Shown: piece after piece, positions 32,990 through 64,000 of the stretch
Numbering within the stretch: position 1 is the stretch's first letter
How the letters are laid out: each line of letters begins with the position of its first letter
The notes under the pieces: model-generated
Database searches by the model: none
What the model was told of the DNA's origin: nothing
What the model saw: only the letters and a program-made list of their open reading frames with translations
Program-made: the position numbers and the translations under genes
Assembly (NCBI GenBank): GCA_965203775.1
Contig: OZ241913.1
Coordinates: 1,081,390 to 1,145,389 of the forward strand
Reading direction: 5' to 3'
DNA length: 64,000 nucleotides
Source: Dehalococcoidia bacterium
GTDB lineage: Bacteria > Chloroflexota > Dehalococcoidia > Bin125

Positions 32990-34177
32990 GAGACCTTTGA
33001 AAAAGTCGGCTGGCGGGGTTGTTGGGGGCGTTTTAGGGCGCGGGATGGCGCGGTTGGGGCCTTGCGCGGGGGGTTCGGGCGGGTGTTTTTGGGGCTGCGC
33101 GGGCGGGTTGGGCGCACTGCGCCCGGCGGCGGCGAGGCTTAGACTGCGGCCTGCAGCCGCACGAGTTTGCGCAGGTTGAAGGCGAGGCATTTGAGGTAGA
33201 ACTCGAAGCGGTTGCGCTCCAGGCTGTAGTAGCGCGTGGTGCGGTAGCCGTAGCTGCGTTTGAACGTGCCGAAGACCGGCTCGACCTTGCGTCTGGTTCG
33301 CTCCCAGAGCGCGTTCAGTTCGCGCTCCGCCTCCGTCAGCGGGTGGTAGCGGTCGGCCCGTCTGAGGATGCGGCAGTCGATCCGCATCGCCTCCAGCAGT
33401 GCGCGCCGCTCGGCCTTGTCGTAGGCGCGGTCGGCGTGCACCGCCGCCTCGTCGCCGGTCAGCAGCGCCTCGGCGACCTGCGACTCGTTGACGTTGGCCG
33501 GGGTGAAGACGCCGCGGCGGATCAGTTGGGTGTCGGCGTCGACCCCGATGTGGCCTTTGTAGCCGTAGCAGGCGTTCCCGCGGGCGCCGCCCCAGGCGGC
33601 GTCCGGGTCGGTCGGCCCCTGGGCCGACTTGGAGCGCCGCCGCGAGGCCTGCGCCTCGATCAGCGTGGCGTCCATCAGCGTCGCGCGGCCCGGCTCGATG
33701 AACAGCCCCTGCGCCTCCAACTGCTCGTCCAACTCGCGCAGCAGCGCCTCGCCCAGCCCGCGCTGCGCGAACAGCGCGCGGTAACGGCTGATCGTGGAGT
33801 GATCGGGGATCTCCTCGCAGAGGCTCAGCCCCGCGAAGCGGCAGAACGAGGCGCGCTCCCAGAGCATGTCCTCCATCGCCGGGTCGGACAGGTCGCGCCA
33901 CTGCTGCAGCAGACAGATTTTGAGCATGACCAGCGCCGGGTAGGCCTTGCGGCCCATCCGCGAGCCGTGCAGCCCGGCCAGCAGCCGCGCGAAGCGCGTC
34001 CAGTCAATCGCCGCGTGGATCGCCTCCAACTGCGCGTTGCGCCCGCGACGCTCCGGTATCTGCGCCTCGCCGAACGACCCCTGCCTGCGCTCACGCTCCA
34101 TGCCGCACCCCTTTCGCGTCCAACCCACCGCGTTCCCCACAAGAATCGCCGATCCCCCAGAGTTGTGCAAAGGTCTC
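32990..34177 (-). mobile_element. IS5-family insertion sequence (1188 bp) with 10-bp terminal inverted repeats GAGACCTTTG and 5-bp target-site duplication TTTTA
   Basis: Left end GAGACCTTTGAAAAAG, right end CAAAGGTCTC. Flanking TTTTA at 32985-32989 and 34178-34182. Removing the element restores an intact module-B repeat CCCCCCTTTTAGGGGGG. Confidence 0.8.
33139..34170 (-). CDS. IS5-family DDE transposase
   Basis: YGYKGHIGVDADTQLIRRGVFTPANVNESQ ... VEPVFGTFKRSYGY ... FYLKCLAFNLRKL, typical of the IS5 group. Confidence 0.8.
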   Translation of the reverse strand: MHNSGGSAILVGNAVGWTRKGCGMERERRQGSFGEAQIPERRGRNAQLEAIHAAIDWTRFARLLAGLHGSRMGRKAYPALVMLKICLLQQWRDLSDPAMEDMLWERASFCRFAGLSLCEEIPDHSTISRYRALFAQRGLGEALLRELDEQLEAQGLFIEPGRATLMDATLIEAQASRRRSKSAQGPTDPDAAWGGARGNACYGYKGHIGVDADTQLIRRGVFTPANVNESQVAEALLTGDEAAVHADRAYDKAERRALLEAMRIDCRILRRADRYHPLTEAERELNALWERTRRKVEPVFGTFKRSYGYRTTRYYSLERNRFEFYLKCLAFNLRKLVRLQAAV

Positions 34178-34431: not shown

Positions 34432-36249
34432 TTACCCGATCGGGGGGGGGGGGGGGATAAATTCCTCCCGATCGCCCTCGCGATCGCCGCGCTCCTGCTC
34501 GCCGCCCTGACCCTTGCCCAGGCCGCCACGCCCACCTCAACCAGCCGCTACCTCGCGCTGGACGCCGGCGGCGAGCACCAATGCACCCTCCGCGCCGACG
34601 GCGTGATTCGCTGCTGGGGCGGCAACTCATCCGAGCTGCGCGATGTTCCGGAGGGGCGCTACGCGGCGGTCGGTGCCGGGGCGTGGCACAACTGCGCGAT
34701 TCGGCGGGGGAGCGGGGATGTCGTCTGCTGGGGCGGAGACTCGAACGCGCCTGACGGCGCGTTCGTTGATGTGGCCGCAGGCTGGCAGTTCGCCTGCGGC
34801 GTGCGCGAGGCAGGCGAGCTTGAGTGCTGGGGAACCAGCAGCTTCGGGCGCAGCGTGCTCGACTACGGCCAAGCGGAGCCGCCCGATGGCGAATTCAGCG
34901 CGGTTAGCGCCGGCTACCTGCACGCCTGCGGACTGCAAACGACAGGCGAAATCACCTGTTGGGGCCGCGCCAACCTCGGACGCACCAACGCGCCATCAGG
35001 CACTTTCACCCAAGTAAGCGCCGGCACCACGCACAGCTGCGCCCTGCGCGAAACCGGCGCAGCCGAATGCTGGGGCCTCAACAACTTCGGCCAGATGGAC
35101 GCTCCCTCAGGCGTCTTCACCCAAATCAGCGCCGGAGCCTGGCACAGCTGCGGGTTGCGCGAATCAGGCGCAATCGAATGCTGGGGCGACGACCGCTACG
35201 GCCAGTCCAACGCCCCATCCGGGCGCTACCTCGCCGTGAGCGCGGGAATGCGCCACTCCTGCGCCCTAAGCCGCGCGGGCACGCGCTGCTGGGGCGGGCA
35301 GGACGATCGCCTGCCTGAGCTGATTGTGGAGCTCGCGCCGGCAAGCAGCACCCGGACCGTCGCGGCTCCCTCAAGCGGCGACGAAAGCGATACGACGCCG
35401 GACCCTGTGACGCCCACGCCGACACCAACACCGACTCCGCCGACGACGACCTTCACCACGCTGAGCGCGGGCGACTATCACAACTGCGCGCGACGCAGCA
35501 CGGGCACGATCGACTGCTGGGGCAGTAACACAAACGGTCAGAGCGCCGATCCCTCCGGCAGCAGCTTCACGACAGCCAGCGCGGGCACCTCGCAGAGCTG
35601 CGGGCTGACCAGCGCCGGTGCGCTCTCCTGCTGGGGGCTGAGCACTACGCGTCCGACCACGGCGCAGGCGCAATCCAGCACGTTCACCGCGGTTGACGCC
35701 GGCGGGGTTGTCTGCGCCGTGCGCAGCGCGGGCACGCTCGCCTGCTGGGGGACGGCCGCCTATGGCGAAGACACGCCACCGACGGGCAGCAGCTTTACGG
35801 CGGTGAGCGTGGGCGACGAGCACGCCTGTGCGCTGAGCAGCGCGGGCGCCATCTCCTGTTGGGGTCGAAGCGCCAATGGGCGGACGACGGTTACGGCTGG
35901 CACGTATACGGCCGTGAGCGCGGGCGGGTTCCATAGCTGCGGGCTGACCAGCACGGGCGCGATCGTCTGCTGGGGCTGGAATGGCTACGGTCAGAGCGCC
36001 GCGCAAACGGGGACATTCACGGCGGTCAGCGCGGGCTGGGGGCACACCTGCGGCCTGCGCAGCACGGGCGCGATCGAGTGCTGGGGTCGGAGCAGCGCCC
36101 ACCCGACCACGGCGCAGGGGCAATCGAGCACGTTCACGGCGGTCGCGGCAGGCCGCGATCACACCTGCGGGCTGAAGAGCGACGGCACGATCGCCTGCTG
36201 GGGCAGCAACGCGAGCGGGCAAGCGCCGACGGCGGGCGTGTCGCCGTAG
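34432..36249 (+). CDS. RCC1-like double beta-propeller secreted protein, paralog 2. Canonical TTG start replaced by TTA; G15 tract at 34442-34456; first usable in-frame start GTG at 34603
   Basis: The frame is open from 34432 and encodes the same signal peptide as paralogs 1 and 3, but the track ORF starts at 34603 because no start codon remains upstream. Confidence 0.55.
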   Translation, partial: LPDRGGGGDKFLPIALAIAALLLAALTLAQAATPTSTSRYLALDAGGEHQCTLRADGVIRCWGGNSSELRDVPEGRYAAVGAGAWHNCAIRRGSGDVVCWGGDSNAPDGAFVDVAAGWQFACGVREAGELECWGTSSFGRSVLDYGQAEPPDGEFSAVSAGYLHACGLQTTGEITCWGRANLGRTNAPSGTFTQVSAGTTHSCALRETGAAECWGLNNFGQMDAPSGVFTQISAGAWHSCGLRESGAIECWGDDRYGQSNAPSGRYLAVSAGMRHSCALSRAGTRCWGGQDDRLPELIVELAPASSTRTVAAPSSGDESDTTPDPVTPTPTPTPTPPTTTFTTLSAGDYHNCARRSTGTIDCWGSNTNGQSADPSGSSFTTASAGTSQSCGLTSAGALSCWGLSTTRPTTAQAQSSTFTAVDAGGVVCAVRSAGTLACWGTAAYGEDTPPTGSSFTAVSVGDEHACALSSAGAISCWGRSANGRTTVTAGTYTAVSAGGFHSCGLTSTGAIVCWGWNGYGQSAAQTGTFTAVSAGWGHTCGLRSTGAIECWGRSSAHPTTAQGQSSTFTAVAAGRDHTCGLKSDGTIACWGSNASGQAPTAGVSP

Positions 36250-39577: not shown

Positions 39578-39835
39578 TTGGTGACTGAGCCCGCCGAGGA
39601 ATCGTTCGACGAATCGTTGCGCCTGTTCATCGCCGCGCGGCTGCCAGAGCGCGCGCAAGCGGAGGCGGGCGCGGCGCTGGCGCAGCTGCGCGCGGCGGGC
39701 TTGCCCGGCTGGCGCTGGGTTCGGCCGGCCGGGCTGCACCTGACGCTTCGCTTCCTGGGCGAGACGCGGCCCGATCAGGTCTGCCCCGCCGCCGAGGCGA
39801 TGCGGCTGAACGAAGAGCTGAGCGGCGCGGGTTGA
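39578..39835 (+). pseudogene. N-terminal fragment of RNA 2',3'-cyclic phosphodiesterase (ThpR/LigT, 2H family)
   Basis: RLFIAARLP ... LHLTLRFLGE (first HxT motif) but only 85 aa. The second HxT half is absent. Confidence 0.5.
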
Positions 39836-39889
39836 GCGGCGCTGTAGAATAAGGAGGCCGACTGAGCGAGGGACCTGCGAGGAGCAGCA

Positions 39890-40147
39890 ATGCAGAGCAG
39901 CCTGATCTCCAAGATCGAGAAGGCCCGAATCTACGCGAGCGAGAGCGATCGCTTCCGCTTCACCGCGCTGCAGTGCGATGTGCGGGGGGACTCCACGACG
40001 CACACCGCCCAACTCGGTCCCGACGGCTGGAGCTGCGACTGCCTGTTCTTCGCCGAGTTCGGCACCTGCTCGCACACAATGGCCCTGGAGCGCCTGCTGG
40101 ACGAGATGCTCCCGGAGCGCTACCGCCCAGCAATACCAAGCGCCTGA
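39890..40147 (+). CDS. small SWIM zinc-finger-like protein (CxC..CxH)
   Basis: WSCDCLFFAEFGTCSHTMAL. GGAG SD 7 nt before the ATG. Confidence 0.5.
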   Translation: MQSSLISKIEKARIYASESDRFRFTALQCDVRGDSTTHTAQLGPDGWSCDCLFFAEFGTCSHTMALERLLDEMLPERYRPAIPSA

Positions 40148-40189
40148 GGGCGGTCAGGGCCTCCCAAGGCTGTGCCGCCTTGTAGGGGT

Positions 40190-41100
40190 TAGGGGCTTTA
40201 GAGGTTGTGCCGCCCCCCGTCACCCCCGCGCCCTCTCCCCGTCATTCCCGCACCCCCTCTCCGACATTCCTGCGCCCCCTCTCCGTCATTCCTGCGCAGG
40301 CAGGAACCCGCAACCTCCCAATCCCCGCCTCACCTCCCCTCTTCCCCAATTCATCCCTCCCCCCTTCCAGGGGGGAGGTTAGGTGGGGGGTGGAACGCCG
40401 CGAGCGCACACCAGTCACGCCCCGCCCCGAAAATCACCCACGCCACCCGCCCCCCCGTCATTCCCGCGCCCGCCCTCCCGTCATCCCCGCGCCTCTCCCG
40501 TCATTCCTGCGCCCCCTCTCCGTCATTCCTGCGCAGGCAGGAACCCGCAACCTCCCACCCCCCGCCTCACCTCCCCTCTTCCCCAATTCATCCCTCCCCC
40601 CTTCCAGGGGGGAGGTGAGGTGGGGGGTGGAACGCCGCGAGCGCACACCAGTCACGCCCCGCCCCGAAATCACCCACGCCACCCACCCCCCGTCATTCCC
40701 GCGCCCGCCCTCCCGTCATCCCCGCACCCCCTCTCCGACATTCCTGCGTCCCTCTTCCGTCATTCCTGCGCAGGCAGGAACCCACCCGCGCCCACCCCCC
40801 ACCTCACCTCCCCTCTTCCCCAATTCATCCCTCCCCCCTCCCAGGGGGGAGGTTAGGTGGGGGGTGGGACGTTGCGAGCGACTACCAGCGATCGTTCGCG
40901 CCCCACTCGCCCACGCTGCGCCTCGACCGCCACGCTGCCATCTCATCCACCGTCATTCCTGCGCAGGCAGGAATCCAGCGCGCCTGCGCTCCATTCCGTC
41001 ATTCCTGCGCAGGCAGGAACCCGCGCCCTCCTCCCCGTCATTCAGGCCACTCTCTTTCCGTCATTCCTGCGCAGGCAGGAACCACCCCACACCCCCACTT
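40190..41100. repeat. composite REP-like array (3-4 A+B units)
   Basis: Repeated units near 40250-40400, 40490-40640, 40730-40870, 40940-41090. Confidence 0.9.
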
Positions 41101-41189
41101 CCCCCAAATCCTGCTACACTCACACTAGAACAGGAGTGCCGAACCATGCCTCTCTCCCCACAACACCGCCGCCCCTCCCTCCACGTCGA

Positions 41190-41300
41190 CGCCGTCAACC
41201 CCAACCTTGCCAACGCTGACCAAAACTTGACAGAGGTTGACACCAGGTTGACAAAAGTTGACAAGGGTTGACAAAAGTTGACACCGTCAACCCCTACCCC
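41190..41300 (+). promoter_or_regulatory. phased array of six direct GTTGACA repeats (10-11 bp period) flanked by inverted GTCAAC copies; iteron/operator-like
   Basis: AACTTGACAGAGGTTGACACCAGGTTGACAAAAGTTGACAAGGGTTGACAAAAGTTGACACCGTCAACCCC. GTCGAC and GCCGTCAAC lie upstream, GCGTCAAC..TGTCAAC downstream. Confidence 0.5.
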
Positions 41301-41628
41301 CACCCCAAACCCCAGCAAAACACAGCAAAACCGCAGCCACACCCACCACCCCGACACCCCCAGCGTCAACCTGCGCTGTCAACCCCTCCGACACACCCCG
41401 AACAACCCTGAACAAATCCGAACAACCCTGAACAAACCCGAACACCGCCGAACGCCCCGACCAGATAGGGAGCACCCCCAAATCACCCCCCAACACCCCC
41501 AAAAAAACAAACCCCGAACACCCTCTGCGCCGCCCGCCCGCGCGGTTCCTGCCTGCGCAGGAATGACGGAACGGGGGGCGCAGGGCATGACGGTTGGGGG
41601 GTGGCGGGGAGAGGAGCGTGAACAGGCG

Positions 41629-42105
41629 CTAGACGCCGGCGGTTTTGCGCCAGGCGCGGATGTCGGCCGTGTGCATGATGTCGTGCTCGATCAGGGCGTC
41701 GACGACGTCGTTGGGGCTGAGGCAGTCGGCCCCGAAGTCGTAGCAGGGCTGCTCCCGCTCGTCGTCGGTCTGGGCGCGGAGGCGGCGGGCGAGTTCCTCC
41801 GTGGAATTGCTCAGCGCGCTGAGCAGCTCGGGCAGCCCGCGATCGGCCCAGCTGCCCGGCACTGCGCCGTTCATCTCGTGCTCTTTGGGAAATTCGCCGA
41901 TTGGCTCGCCGCGGTCGTAGCGGTTCAGGACGCCGAGCAGCCAGGCGTCCCACGCGGTGAGGTGGGCGAGGCATTCGCGGATGCTCCAGACGCCGACCAC
42001 GTTGGGCTCGTCGTAGGTCTGCTCGGGCAGGTCGGCGGCCGCCTCGATCAGGCAGCGGCGGCTTTCCTCCAGGTCGATCGTTTCGCTTCGGGCTTCCGTA
42101 GTCAT
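41629..42105 (-). CDS. DinB_2 family protein
   Basis: WSIRECLAHLTAWDAWLLGVL ... HDIMHTADI. Confidence 0.65.
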   Translation of the reverse strand: MTTEARSETIDLEESRRCLIEAAADLPEQTYDEPNVVGVWSIRECLAHLTAWDAWLLGVLNRYDRGEPIGEFPKEHEMNGAVPGSWADRGLPELLSALSNSTEELARRLRAQTDDEREQPCYDFGADCLSPNDVVDALIEHDIMHTADIRAWRKTAGV

Positions 42106-42391
42106 GGCGTGTCCTGGGCAAGTTCTGGATTGGGGATCGAAATCGGGAATGCGCGGCCAGGGCCGCGGCGCGGGTCGCGCACTGCAACACAGTTGGGTTA
42201 ACGCTAGCCAAGCGGCGCCGCGGGTTTGCGTAGCCTGCGCTACAGAGCAGCGCGGGCGCGGGCGCTCGCTTGACGCTCAGGCGAGGCGCTAGATAGCCTG
42301 CGCACTTGGCGCCGCCGTCGTGGGGCCGTCGCATCGTGGCCGCTCCCGCGCGCCAGATCCGCCCCACCTTGCGCCCGAATGCTGGAGACGC

Positions 42392-43000
42392 ATGCGCTCT
42401 ATCGGACTCACGGGCGGGATCGCCTCGGGCAAATCCACGGTGGTCGGACTCCTCCAGGAGTTCGGGGCGGCGACGATCGACGCCGACAAGCTGGGACACC
42501 AAACCTACGAACCGGGCACGGACACGTTCCGCGCCGTGGTCGCCGCGTTCGGCGACGAGCTGGTCGCCGCCGACGGCACAATTGACCGTCGCGTGCTGGG
42601 CGGCAAGGTGTTCGGCAAGCCCGAGGAGCTGAAGCGGCTGACCGACATCGTCTGGCCGGGCATCCGCGCGCTGGCGGCCGCCGAGCTTGAGCGGCTCGCC
42701 GCAGCTGGGCAGACGGAAGTCGCCGTGCTGGAAGCGGCGGTGCTGATCGAGGCCGAGTGGCAGGATCTGGTGGATGAGGTCTGGGTGGTGTCCGTCTCGC
42801 CGCAGGCGGCGCGGGAACGGCTGATGGCGCGTAACAACATGAGCGCGGAGGACGCGGACGCGCGGATCAACTCCCAACTGAGCAACGACGAGCGGCTCGA
42901 GCACGCCGATGTGGTGATCGACACCGATTGCCCGCTGGAGGAAGTGCGCGGGCGCGTTGAGGCCGCCTGGGCCGAGCTCGGGCGGCGCAATGCCGACTGA
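42392..43000 (+). CDS. coaE: dephospho-CoA kinase
   Basis: IGLTGGIASGKST P-loop. GGAG SD before the ATG at 42392. Confidence 0.85.
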   Translation: MRSIGLTGGIASGKSTVVGLLQEFGAATIDADKLGHQTYEPGTDTFRAVVAAFGDELVAADGTIDRRVLGGKVFGKPEELKRLTDIVWPGIRALAAAELERLAAAGQTEVAVLEAAVLIEAEWQDLVDEVWVVSVSPQAARERLMARNNMSAEDADARINSQLSNDERLEHADVVIDTDCPLEEVRGRVEAAWAELGRRNAD

Positions 43001-48821: not shown

Positions 48822-50642
48822 TTGCCCGATCGGGGGGGGGGGGGGGGGGATAAATTCCTCCCGATCGCCCTCGCGATCGCCGCACTCCTGCTCGCCGCTC
48901 TGACCCTCGCCCAAGCCGCCACCCCCACCTCAACCAGCCGCTACCTGGCGCTCGACGCGGGCGGCGAGCATCAATGCACCCTCCGCGCCGACGGAGTCAT
49001 CCGCTGCTGGGGCGGCAATCAGGCAGATCTGCGCAACATCCCCGACGGCCGCTACAGCGCCATCAGCGCCGGCGCATGGCACAACTGCGCCATCCGCCAG
49101 GGCAGCGGCGAAATCGCCTGCTGGGGCGCAGATCAGAACGCGCCTGACGGCGCGTTCAGCGAGATCGCCGTCGGCTGGCAGTTCGCCTGCGCCATCCGCG
49201 CGAGCGACAGCGAGCTCGAATGCTGGGGAACCAACAGCTTCGGCCGCAGCGTTCTCGACTACGGCCAAGCCGACCCGCCCAACGGCGAGTTCACCTCCGT
49301 GAGCGCCGGCTACCTCCACGCCTGCGGACTACAAACGACAGGCGAAATCACCTGTTGGGGCCGCGACAACCTCGGACGCACCGACGCGCCTGAGGGCGTC
49401 TTCACACAGGTAAGCGCCGGCACCACGCACAGCTGCGCCATCCGCGAAAACGGCGCAGCCGAGTGTTGGGGCCTCAACAACTTCGGGCAGTTGGACGCCC
49501 CCTCAGGAGCCTTCACTCAAATCAGCGCGGGCGCATGGCATAGCTGCGGATTGCGCGAATCAGGCGCAATCGAGTGCTGGGGAGATGACCGCTACGGGCA
49601 GTCCAACGCTCCATCCGGGCGCTATGTCGCTGTGAGCGCAGGAATGCGCCACTCATGCGCGCTCAGCAGCGAGCGCGCTCGCTGCTGGGGCGGTCAGGAT
49701 GATCGCCTGCCTGAGCTGATCGCGGAGCTCGCCCCAACGAGCGCCACCCGGACCGTCGCGGATAGTTCGGCTGAGGACGAAAGCGACACAACGCCGGACC
49801 CTGTGGCGCCCACACCAACCCCCACGCCGACACCGACACCGACGACTACTTTCACCACGCTGAGCGCGGGCCAGTATCACACCTGCGCGCGGCGCAGCAC
49901 GGGGACGATCGACTGCTGGGGACAAAACACATACGGCCAGGACGCCGATCCCTCCGGCAGCAGCTTCACGGCGGTCAGCGCGGGCATTACTCAGAGCTGC
50001 GCGCTGACCAGCGCGGGCGCGCTCTCCTGTTGGGGGCGAAGCGTTAACCGTCCCACCACAACCCAGGCGCAATCCAGCACGTTCACAGCGGTCGCCGCCG
50101 GCGGGGTTGTCTGCGCCGTCCGCAGCGCGGGCACGCTCGCCTGTTGGGGGGCGACCGCCTACGGCCAAAACAACCCGCCTTCGGGCAGCAGCTTCACGGC
50201 GGTGAGCGTGGGCCATGATCACGCTTGCGCGCTGAGCAGCGCGGGGACGATCTCCTGCTGGGGTCGGAACAACAGCGGACAGCGAGATGTTACAGCCGGC
50301 ACCTACACGGCCGTCAGCGCGGGTGGGGTTCATACCTGCGGGTTGACCAGCACGGGCGCGATCGTCTGTTGGGGTTGGAACGCCTTGGGCCAGACCGACG
50401 CGCAGACGGGCACGTTCACGGCGGTCAGCGCGGGCTGGGGGCATACCTGTGGTTTGCGCAGCACGGGCACGATCGAGTGCTGGGGCAACAACGCGAACGG
50501 GCAAAGCACGGTCACTGCAGGTACGTACACGGCAGTCGCGGCAGGGCGCGAGCACACCTGCGGGTTGAAGACCGACGGCGCGATTGCCTGCTGGGGCAGT
50601 AACGCGAGCGGGCAAGCGCCGTCCACAGGCGTGTCGCCCTGA
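48822..50642 (+). CDS. RCC1-like double beta-propeller secreted protein, paralog 3. G18 tract at 48832-48849
   Basis: TTG start, MPDRGGGGGDKFLPIALAIAALLLAALTLAQA, two CWG-repeat propellers joined by a PTPTPTPTPTP linker. Confidence 0.7.
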   Translation: MPDRGGGGGDKFLPIALAIAALLLAALTLAQAATPTSTSRYLALDAGGEHQCTLRADGVIRCWGGNQADLRNIPDGRYSAISAGAWHNCAIRQGSGEIACWGADQNAPDGAFSEIAVGWQFACAIRASDSELECWGTNSFGRSVLDYGQADPPNGEFTSVSAGYLHACGLQTTGEITCWGRDNLGRTDAPEGVFTQVSAGTTHSCAIRENGAAECWGLNNFGQLDAPSGAFTQISAGAWHSCGLRESGAIECWGDDRYGQSNAPSGRYVAVSAGMRHSCALSSERARCWGGQDDRLPELIAELAPTSATRTVADSSAEDESDTTPDPVAPTPTPTPTPTPTTTFTTLSAGQYHTCARRSTGTIDCWGQNTYGQDADPSGSSFTAVSAGITQSCALTSAGALSCWGRSVNRPTTTQAQSSTFTAVAAGGVVCAVRSAGTLACWGATAYGQNNPPSGSSFTAVSVGHDHACALSSAGTISCWGRNNSGQRDVTAGTYTAVSAGGVHTCGLTSTGAIVCWGWNALGQTDAQTGTFTAVSAGWGHTCGLRSTGTIECWGNNANGQSTVTAGTYTAVAAGREHTCGLKTDGAIACWGSNASGQAPSTGVSP

Positions 50643-56569: not shown

Positions 56570-56646
56570 TGGTGGGCCCTCTGGGACTCGAACCCAGGAC
56601 CTTCGGATTAAAAGTCCGCTGCTCTGCCAAACTGAGCTAAGGGCCC
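56570..56646 (-). tRNA. tRNA-Lys (anticodon UUU)
   Basis: Reverse complement folds as acceptor GGGCCCT/AGGGCCC, D arm GCTC-AGTTTGGCA-GAGC, anticodon loop CUUUUAA, T arm CTGGG-TTCGAGT-CCCAG, encoded CCA. Confidence 0.85.
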
Positions 56647-56649
56647 AAG

Positions 56650-57085
56650 GCCAGTCTACGCGGCCAGCGCGCATGCGGGCGCGCTCACACAAGAGTCTGT
56701 TCACGCATCCCTCAGCCCCACCATCCCCCAACCGCCATTCCTGCGCAGGCAGGAACCCACCATCCACGCGCTTCCGTCATTCCTGCGCAGGCAGGAACCC
56801 GCGCGCCCCTCACCGTCATTCCTGCGCTCTATCCGTCATTCCTGCGCAGGCAGGAACCCGCGCGCCCCTCACCGTCATTCCTGCGCTCTATCCGTCATTC
56901 CTGCGCAGGCAGGAACCCACCCACCCACGCTCCCGTCATTCCTGCGCAGGCAGGAACCCGCGCACCCCCCAACCGTCATTCCTGCGCAGGCAGGAACCCA
57001 CCACCGCTACTCAACTTCCCCCATCCCAAATTCATCCCTCCCCCCTTCCAGGGGGGAGGTTAGGTGGGGGGTGAGACGCCGCGAG
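56650..57085. repeat. composite REP-like array (7 module-A copies + 1 module B) adjacent to tRNA-Lys
   Basis: Sequence match. Confidence 0.9.
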
Positions 57086-57556: not shown

Positions 57557-58324
57557 CTAGCTGTTCGCGCTGATGAACTCCTGCACCCGCCGCCAGGCGT
57601 CGGCGCAGGCGTCCTGATGCTCGTCATACGTGCGGTCGAAGAACGAGTGCGGCGCGCCCTCGTAGGTGATGAACTCGTTCGCCACGCCCCGCGCGTCCAG
57701 CGCCGCCGCGAACTTGTCCACCTCCGCCCGCGGAATGCCCTCATCCGCGCCGCCCATCAGACCGAGCAGCGGGCAGGCGACCTGCTCGACTTGCCCCAGC
57801 GGCGAAGCGCCCCCATTCAGGCCCTCCCGCGTTGGGTGGCCGTAGAAGCCGATCGCCCCGCTCAGGCCGTGCCCCGCCGCCCCTTGCAGCCACGAGTTGC
57901 TCCCGCCGAAGCAGAAGCCCACCGTGAACAGCGCCCGCTCCGCGTCGTCGGCCCGCAGCACCGCCGCCGCCGCCGCCACATCCGCCGCGATCCCCTCCGG
58001 CGTCGTGCCCCGCACGTGCGGCCAGAAGTCGAACTCCGCGTCGCGCTTGCCCACCCCGGCGGTCCGCCCGAAATAGTCGATCGCGACCGCCTCCACGCCC
58101 GCCTCCGCGAAGCGAATCGCCAGCTCCTCGTAGAAGCGGAACAGCCCGCGCACATCGGGCAGCACCACGATCGCCGGCCCGCCCGACTGCTCCGGCCGCG
58201 CGTGAAACGCGGCGAACTCCACCCCGTCCGACGCCCGCAGCGTCAGATCCTCCAGATCGACCGCCGCCCCCGCAATCGGCGGCACCGCCGGCAGAGCCTC
58301 GTATCGGTGGCACATCGCGCGCAC
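57557..58324 (-). CDS. dienelactone hydrolase family protein
   Basis: alpha/beta hydrolase with GFCFGG nucleophile elbow. Confidence 0.75.
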   Translation of the reverse strand: MRAMCHRYEALPAVPPIAGAAVDLEDLTLRASDGVEFAAFHARPEQSGGPAIVVLPDVRGLFRFYEELAIRFAEAGVEAVAIDYFGRTAGVGKRDAEFDFWPHVRGTTPEGIAADVAAAAAVLRADDAERALFTVGFCFGGSNSWLQGAAGHGLSGAIGFYGHPTREGLNGGASPLGQVEQVACPLLGLMGGADEGIPRAEVDKFAAALDARGVANEFITYEGAPHSFFDRTYDEHQDACADAWRRVQEFISANS

Positions 58325-60119: not shown

Positions 60120-60535
60120 CCGCCCACGCACACGACCCATCCCTCCCCCCTCTCAGGGGGGAGGTTAGGTGGGGGGTGGGAAGCCACCCACCAGCACCAC
60201 CACCCGCAAGCAACCCCCAAACCCCCACTCCCACCCCCTCCCGCCATACTCACTCTCGCCCCTCCCATCATCCCCGTCCCCCTCCCGCCATACCACTCGT
60301 GCGCCCTCCCATCATCCCCCCTCCTGCCATACCCGCCCCCATCCGTCATTCCTGCGCCCCCCTCCCGTCATTCCTGCGCAGGCAGGAACCACGCGACCAC
60401 TGACATCGCTACGCCCCAACACCCCAACACCCCACTCAAGCCGCATCCACGCCGCCGCTGAACCTCACTGCCGGAACACAACTGCGTTCACTACGTGAGT
60501 TTCTGCCTACGCAGGAATGACGGAAGCGGGCGCAG
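60120..60535. repeat. composite REP-like elements (module B + A, plus an inverted A)
   Basis: Sequence match. Confidence 0.85.
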
Positions 60536-63781: not shown

Positions 63782-64000
63782 ATGCGCACCGTGCTGGTGG
63801 TGGAGGACGAGCGGCATCTGGCCGAGACGCTGCGCTACAACCTCGAAGGCGAGGGCTATCGCGTGCGCACCGCCGGCGACGGCGTCGAGGGACTCTCGCT
63901 GGCGCGCACGCTCCAGCCCGACCTGGTGCTGCTCGACCTGATGCTGCCCGCAATGGACGGCGTGGGCGTGCTGCGCGGCATCCGCGAAGAGTCGCAGGTG
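63782..64000 (+). CDS. OmpR/PhoB-type response regulator receiver domain (3' partial at window edge)
   Basis: VLVVEDERHLAETLRYNLEGEGYRVRTA ... DLVLLDLMLPAMDG receiver signature. Confidence 0.75.
   Translation, partial: MRTVLVVEDERHLAETLRYNLEGEGYRVRTAGDGVEGLSLARTLQPDLVLLDLMLPAMDGVGVLRGIREESQV

Follow-up and report, generated by a model that had tools for sequence, protein, structure and literature searches.

An intergenic cluster of ten GTTGAC(A)-type sites, six direct and four inverted, at positions 41185–41383 of a 64-kb stretch of Dehalococcoidia DNA (the whole stretch that was analysed, hereafter the window) is real and non-random, and is putatively an iteron-type protein-binding cluster. 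Arrays of this kind form the replication origin beside the initiator gene in phage, satellite and integrative elements that encode a P4-alpha, SaPI-Rep or VapE-like primase-helicase. There, the winged-helix domain of a hexameric initiator reads 5–6-bp iterons arranged in opposed sets, and the initiator melts the DNA between them. We tentatively favor, at somewhat less than even confidence, an explanation in which the cluster is an orphan array of this type: either what is left of a mobile element that lost its genes upon rearrangement of the locus and invasion by REPs, or a site to which an initiator encoded elsewhere, outside the window, may still bind in trans. Both protein binding at the cluster and its relic or trans-acting status are what we infer from sequence, and GGTTGACA is the candidate binding target of the putative initiator. 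If initiator-bound, the cluster would be a trace of, or a trans site for, a primase-helicase mobile element in this genome of an uncultured high-GC Chloroflexi member, where none is annotated.

The core of the cluster is a phased array of six TTGACA hexamers on the plus strand (41227–41283), starting at 41227, 41237, 41248, 41258, 41268 and 41278, hence at spacings of 10, 11, 10, 10 and 10 bp, with spacers that vary (GAGG, CCAGG, AAAG, AGGG and AAAG). The original prediction of six phased repeats at 10–11 bp was therefore accurate in position and spacing; it had called all six GTTGACA, which holds for five copies, but the first reads CTTGACA. The 64-kb window has ten TTGACA hexamers, and seven of these fall inside one 157-bp stretch. 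Tandem Repeats Finder described the array as period 10 with 5.6 copies, and its spectral power at period 10.1 was greater than in all 200 shuffles and among the highest across the 64 kb. Mismatches were confined largely to the spacers: 1 of 42 positions in the 7-bp cores vs 6 of 18 in the 3-bp spacers (Fisher p=0.002, with the register picked post hoc). The array is also the lowest-GC 40-mer of the surrounding tract (GC 0.40), and regional GC at the cluster is 0.61 vs 0.69 for the window. A 41-codon open reading frame on the plus strand (41146–41271), with AGGAG 11 nt upstream (AGGAG-ATG at 41130–41148), enters the array and has its stop codon inside it; it is probably not a gene. A coding reading of the tract was rejected: the frame from 41146 is open save for one TGA, few stops occur in any frame because the sequence is T-poor, and a six-frame search against 5.8 billion protein clusters found no homologue of either the tract or the 41-codon frame.

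Inverted copies of the same core flank the array. Ten GTYRAC sites were observed in 41185–41383 vs approximately 0.14 expected from composition; elsewhere in the window the count was 50 vs 44 expected. Besides the six direct sites there are four inverted ones, GTCAAC at 41194, 41286, 41365 and 41378 (the last being TGTCAAC). A GTCGAC starts at 41185. The flanking GTCGAC and GTCAAC..TGTCAAC sites that had been pointed out earlier thus exist as described, as does GTCAACCCC, which occurs in three copies at steps of 92 and 92 bp. Strict GTTGAC/GTCAAC sites number nine, in the pattern '<>>>>><<<', and GTYRAC sites ten with the GTCGAC at 41185. Upstream, one inverted copy of the repeat core is included in an imperfect palindrome, GTCGAC-GCC-GTCAAC (41185–41199), which has 86% identity over 22 nt to 41277–41298. 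At the other end, the last direct copy abuts an inverted one in GTTGAC-ACC-GTCAAC (41277–41291), an inverted repeat whose 6-bp arms are 3 bp apart. The remaining two inverted copies, GTCAAC followed by TGTCAAC 13 bp away (41365–41383, minus strand), read CAGGTTGACG and GGGGTTGACA on the opposite strand. The extended consensus of the cluster is RGGTTGACR, and the inverted copies, read on the opposite strand, share its GG prefix at distances of 32–95 bp. Tandem slippage alone cannot produce inverted copies that lie tens of bases away and carry the same prefix, hence the cluster is not a simple minisatellite.

GTTGACA arrays are also found elsewhere. A pattern of three GTTGACA copies at 10–11 bp was searched for in one genome per species and in IMG/VR, and returned at least 115 loci (L002–L116) and 76 loci (L137–L212), respectively. 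The genome loci come from very diverse taxa, and nearly all of those checked are intergenic. The 76 phased triplets in the viral contigs of IMG/VR compare with 15, 20 and 4 for three composition-matched control heptamers, so that GTTGACA is 4–19 times commoner in this arrangement. Approximately 60% of the arrays elsewhere have variable spacers. A gene for a VapE-like, DUF5906, DUF3987 or DnaG-type primase or primase-helicase, called by Pfam and tblastn, accompanied 18 of the 76 viral loci and 15 of 115 among the genome loci listed, hence at least 33 of the fetched loci, compared with only 1 of 39 control-heptamer loci. This gene lies at most 300 bp from the array in most loci, and up to 2.8 kb away; in Micromonospora an integrase follows it.

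The rep-linked clusters (from hosts of 36–71% GC) contain 7–13 GTTGAC sites, with direct blocks at 9–11 bp followed by inverted blocks and with a GC content below the locus mean. The Rep C-termini could not be aligned by BLAST across groups, and an iteron core may be shared across initiator families. The recurrence of the GTTGAC(A) iteron beside such unrelated-looking primase and primase-helicase genes provides a simple sequence handle on the origins of these elements. In most of the arrays elsewhere no rep gene was detected, and some have a terminase, integrase, DnaB-helicase or methylase gene as their neighbor. The motif is thus not diagnostic of an origin; it appears, rather, to be typical of mobile-element DNA transactions. 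It also occurs in Bacteroidales elements. The housekeeping sigma factor of Bacteroidales is not known to use TTGACA as its –35 box, which makes an element protein a better candidate than host sigma-70 for recognizing the motif.

How closely does the cluster in the window resemble these? Its core is identical to that of the rep-linked GTTGAC(A) clusters in IMG/VR, Micromonospora and Bacteroidales, which often have the GG prefix and show the same 9–11 bp spacing, and the orientation string of its nine strict sites is identical to that of the rep-linked locus L149. Unlike the window cluster, however, the rep-linked ones lie mostly 0–300 bp from the initiator gene, some beside an integrase, whereas ours stands alone between REPs, and the C/A-rich tract downstream of it has no equivalent at any rep-linked cluster. 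Most of them also contain a 40-bp stretch of 7–28% GC that is missing here (the lowest 40-bp GC is 0.07–0.28 in rep-linked origins of low- and mid-GC hosts and 0.47–0.57 in Micromonospora). Compared with what defines an origin of an SF3 primase-helicase, the window offers ten sites (41185–41383) where 6–12 short iterons of 5–8 bp are expected, and these are opposed on two sides (string '<>>>>>><<<'), matching rep-linked loci such as L149 and L193. The AT-rich melting region between the iteron sets is absent, 41292–41364 being C-rich instead, and no initiator gene (rep or pri-rep) directly adjoins.

In SaPI origins, 6–12 penta- or hexanucleotide iterons lie directly 3' of rep; they face each other across an AT-rich center, and Rep reads them with its C-terminal winged helix (PMC9371898). 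The window cluster and SaPI/PICI origins, whose initiator is Rep or a Pri-Rep self-loading helicase, are alike in having short, phased hexanucleotide iterons in opposed sets (ten sites in the window); they differ in iteron sequence, and the rep gene and central AT-rich region of SaPI have no counterpart here. In phage P4, ori and crr carry octamer iterons (TGTTCACC), direct and inverted, that are bound by the C-terminal domain of the alpha primase-helicase, and crr, a second site with iterons, acts away from the gene. The window differs from P4 in sequence and has no alpha-like gene; a second array in the tract (see below), read on the minus strand as TTGTTCA, matches the P4 iteron at only 6 of 8 bases, which may be chance. 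The origins of iteron plasmids (pSC101, RK2, R6K, P1 and F) combine iterons of 17–22 bp with DnaA boxes and an AT-rich unwinding element, and rep lies next to them. Like the window cluster, they have direct and inverted copies, which in the plasmids bind an initiator and serve autoregulation, respectively; by contrast, the window has units of 10–11 bp, no DnaA box, AT-rich element or rep gene, and no plasmid match. The resemblance to iterons noted in the original prediction is therefore borne out by structure and by the comparison with primase-helicase loci, but not by a rep gene, a DnaA box, an AT-rich core or conservation.

Several results count against the orphan-iteron reading, namely that the 64 kb hold no partner gene or relic of one, that the cluster has neither a DnaA box nor an AT-rich core, and that no relative carries the tract at either flank. 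Queries for VapE, DUF5906, DUF3987, primase and integrase gave no tblastn match in the 64 kb at E≤0.1, and no rep or par gene occurs in the window, in which Pfam identified only housekeeping genes plus IS5 and IS30-like elements. No DnaA-box-like site with up to two mismatches was present in 41084–41543. Searches by blastn found no match to the tract in plasmid and phage records; the right-hand junction of the array with its palindrome gave two unrelated chance matches only in JGI metagenomes, and no match in IMG/VR. The tract has no paralogue in the rest of the window. A degraded IS end, which had been named as a possibility that would refute the prediction, was not supported either: the tract matched neither the IS5 nor the IS30-like copies of the window, and no direct repeat (target-site duplication) flanks the REP arms. 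The array is not in a tRNA or attachment-site context, the nearest tRNA being 15 kb away. An Rfam scan at gathering threshold called tRNA-Lys alone (56573–56646), and ARAGORN called a tRNA-SeC at 58150–58234.

The cluster lies in a gene-free gap of 1481 bp (40148–41628), in agreement with the approximately 1.5 kb given earlier, between the convergent SWIM ORF (39890–40147, plus strand) and DinB_2 (41629–42105, minus strand). Both flanks of the gap are thus 3' ends; the SWIM-finger ORF is conserved in Chloroflexi, and the neighboring genes of the cluster are SWIM, DinB_2, CoaE and transketolase. A tract of 460 bp containing the cluster is bracketed by perfect inverted REPs of 28 bp, the left arm (TTCCGTCATTCCTGCGCAGGCAGGAACC, 41056–41083, plus strand) being 100% complementary over 28 nt to the right arm (41544–41571, minus strand). 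The rest of the gap is occupied by a REP cluster that is C-rich on the plus strand (40213–41083) and includes a 237-bp tandem unit in 2.9 copies. The array itself sits between inverted REPs without being a REP or BIME, as no REP palindrome or REP core was found inside it. Hence the repeat motif is indeed unrelated to the REP modules, as had been claimed; the tract as a whole, however, is REP-bracketed and has the C content of the REP cluster.

Further details of these repeats were noted in passing. In the 64 kb, 63 copies of the REP family CCGTCATTCCTGCGCAGGCAGGAAC were counted (55 on the plus strand and 8 on the minus strand), for example at 40240–41083 and 56775–56974, with C-rich filler after each, and among the fetched relatives the family is common to L121 only. 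Two short-read contigs, L001 and P0012, end at the REPs. The 237-bp unit (40213–40888) consists of REP modules and a GGGGGGAGGT hairpin, in 2.9 copies of 91% identity. Its hairpins gave spurious miRNA-like matches in Rfam, and these sub-threshold matches on REP hairpins were the only ones, with no family matched in 41084–41543.

The junction between SWIM and DinB appears to be rearranged. In relatives with a DinB 70–82% identical, DinB is divergent from CoaE and converges on ETF-alpha, with a spacer of just 22–480 bp (in relative L120 an HTH ORF lies downstream of DinB instead of ETF-alpha). In relatives with a SWIM ORF 87–88% identical, LigT and SWIM are co-oriented and converge on KAS, with a spacer of 40–70 bp. 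On one contig of a relative (ENA ERZ25070760 contig_16; L126/L136) the SWIM and DinB loci lie on the same strand approximately 54 kb apart, so that the convergent junction in the window looks like an inversion or rearrangement breakpoint; this arrangement implies that the breakpoints of the putative inversion were the SWIM/KAS and DinB/ETF spacers. The LigT/ThpR 2',5'-RNA-ligase gene beside it (39578–39835) encodes 85 aa vs 196–198 aa in relatives L133–L136, and this truncation makes it probably a pseudogene at the rearranged locus. At the loci of relatives, on both flanks, no TTGACA at all and no comparable C/A-rich tract was found.

We also asked whether the tract is homologous to the HTH gene of L120, and rejected this. 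The ribosome-binding site, ATG and first codons are alike (38 of 59 nt), yet shuffles do as well: the best local alignment was equaled or exceeded by 92 of 300 block shuffles, and tblastn found no HTH domain in the tract. The L120 ORF (6498–7304, minus strand) was called as 268 aa with an N-terminal HTH_38/HTH_23 domain, convergent with DinB; its C-terminal half is made of three 30-bp REP-like repeats, hence the gene call is probably over-extended.

Downstream of the array, the plus strand is C/A-rich and G/T-poor (41280–41530: A 33.5%, C 49%, G 12%, T 5.6%). With 82.5% C+A, it is the extreme of the window (the runner-up, 76% at 60184, is another REP-linked filler), which confirms the description of approximately 250 bp of almost only C and A. 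Its C content equals that of the adjoining REP cluster (49% vs 48.5%), and the A excess alone is special to it. In our reading, the region 41290–41530 is an A-enriched form of the C-rich filler found alongside the REP clusters of this genome, shaped further by local duplications. Duplications of 10, 20, 92 and 165 bp are present in the tract. One of its repeats is a second phased array, with period 10 and a 20-bp super-period (41396–41455, plus strand), consisting of four GAACAA followed by GAACAC and GAACGC. The sub-repeats mentioned earlier are thus real, GAACAA as four exact and two degenerate copies (41400–41455) and CACCCCCAAA as three units of its type. The power of the GAACAA array at period 10.0 exceeded that of all 200 shuffles, and its core vs spacer contrast was not significant (p=0.08). 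A coherent 10-bp phase over the whole 320 bp was not supported: the GTTGACA and GAACAA arrays are each periodic on their own and mutually out of phase, and periodicity is confined to these two arrays. Between them lies a C-run block, CCCCTACCCCCACCCCAAACCCC, followed by CAGCAAAAC-type units of 10–11 bp (41291–41337, plus strand), the three CAGCA-type units starting at 41313, 41323 and 41334. The CCCCTACCCCCACCCCAAACCCC block (41291–41313), which abuts the repeat array, reads on the minus strand as a canonical G-quadruplex motif of four runs and on the plus strand as an i-motif.

These repeats are the basis of the main rival explanation, in which the cluster consists of functionless local repeats made by slippage and small segmental duplications from a low-complexity, strand-asymmetric junction sequence, and its match to an iteron motif is coincidental. 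We consider this unlikely, while giving it serious weight. Four different 10-bp arrays adjoin one another, together with the 20-, 92- and 165-bp duplications, and the presence of three other, unrelated 10-bp tandem arrays next to the GTTGACA array argues for local repeat instability. The region is repeat-prone, as seen from the 237-bp tandem unit and the 63 REPs. Moreover, the tract is unique and unconserved, and it is located at a synteny breakpoint between convergent gene ends with no gene to serve; the non-significant core vs spacer contrast of the second array fits as well. By contrast, in the first array the core is invariant while the spacers diverge, with the reservation on the chosen register given above. 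Inverted copies with a shared extended consensus are not made by slippage, and elsewhere the motif is enriched as phased arrays and linked to rep genes. Were the cluster mere decaying repeat DNA, the locus would be an ordinary REP-invaded rearrangement junction.

An operator for a tandem binder, such as an OmpR/PhoB-type winged-helix response regulator or a Xis/Cox-like protein, is improbable; the target of its control would be a small transcript not yet annotated, perhaps that of the 41-codon ORF or a C/A-rich RNA. OmpR/PhoB operators (ompF F1–F3, pho and tor boxes) have up to six direct repeats of 10–11 bp with a TGT(T)CA-like core on one strand and a 20-bp dimer super-period. Direct repeats of 10–11 bp with a 20-bp super-period are a hallmark of head-to-tail winged-helix binding, and both features occur here. 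On the minus strand, TGTCAAC and TGTTCA resemble known boxes, those of PhoB (CTGTCAT) and TorR (CTGTTCATAT), which is in favor of an operator. An AGGAG-ATG lies at 41130–41148, and some viral arrays elsewhere (L151 and L170) lie directly upstream of a ribosome-binding site. Nevertheless, whereas OmpR/PhoB arrays stand in for the –35 region of the promoter that they regulate, or directly adjoin it, the window array is followed by neither a –10 box nor a downstream gene. The promoter that an operator, one of the alternatives originally offered, would require is missing: no promoter-like site was detected on either strand in 39800–42500, no –10 box after the array and no terminator-like site. No Rfam family was matched, the 41-codon ORF has no homologue, both flanks are convergent 3' ends, and no regulator gene adjoins (the sole response-regulator start was seen at 63782). 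A promoter or an array of –35 boxes was rejected on similar grounds, as there is no –10 partner here and only 8–15% of the GTTGACA arrays elsewhere have a –10 box at promoter distance.

The C/A-rich part might instead act as RNA, either as a Rho-loading (rut-like) region or as a C/A-rich protein-sponge RNA, and to this we assign little probability. As a rut-like region, it would halt plus-strand read-through from the SWIM operon and REP cluster before antisense entry into DinB. The base composition (C 49% and G 12% over 250 nt), a plus-strand RNA predicted to be largely unpaired and a geometry convergent with DinB are consistent with this, and as RNA the tract would be an excellent Rho-loading region. 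However, fold z-scores are unremarkable (–2.3 on the plus strand and –0.4 on the minus strand), which together with the lack of an Rfam family also led us to reject a structured RNA; the tract is unconserved, and the GTTGACA sites are left unexplained. Furthermore, the whole REP cluster is equally C-rich, which makes the composition a regional property and not that of a dedicated element.

Very improbable, in our view, is that the cell keeps a rep-less chromosomal array, either as a decoy or 'handcuffing' site where an incoming primase-helicase element would have its initiator titrated, or as the origin of a minimal element replicated by a helper's Rep. If true, the former would be defense by incompatibility against a primase-helicase phage or satellite, and the latter a hitch-hiker whose origin is replicated in trans. 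The parC sites of R1 and pSK41 have direct repeats phased at 10–11 bp or 20 bp, and the window arrays have periods of 10 and 20 bp; a centromere-like partition site of the parC type (bound by ParR) or type Ib, as also suggested originally, is nonetheless the most remote of these explanations, since parM/parR and parA are missing both next to the repeats and anywhere in the window, a type II parC would have its repeats at the promoter of an adjoining parMR operon, the context is chromosomal, and inverted copies are foreign to the parC design.

Lastly, we made some observations on other repeats. A Thermomicrobiales locus (L042, 2035–2330) examined as a possible relative of the array contains GTTGACACTG in 30 perfect tandem units. 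It proved to be a simple minisatellite, unrelated to the array and sharing no REPs with the window, and the gene downstream of it has an N-terminus that, by eye, we take to be NYN-like. Within the window, two paralogous RCC1-repeat proteins (34603–36249 and 48822–50642) have PTPTPT linkers and a similar short upstream region each, and the first of the two genes adjoins an IS5-family transposase (33139–34170).
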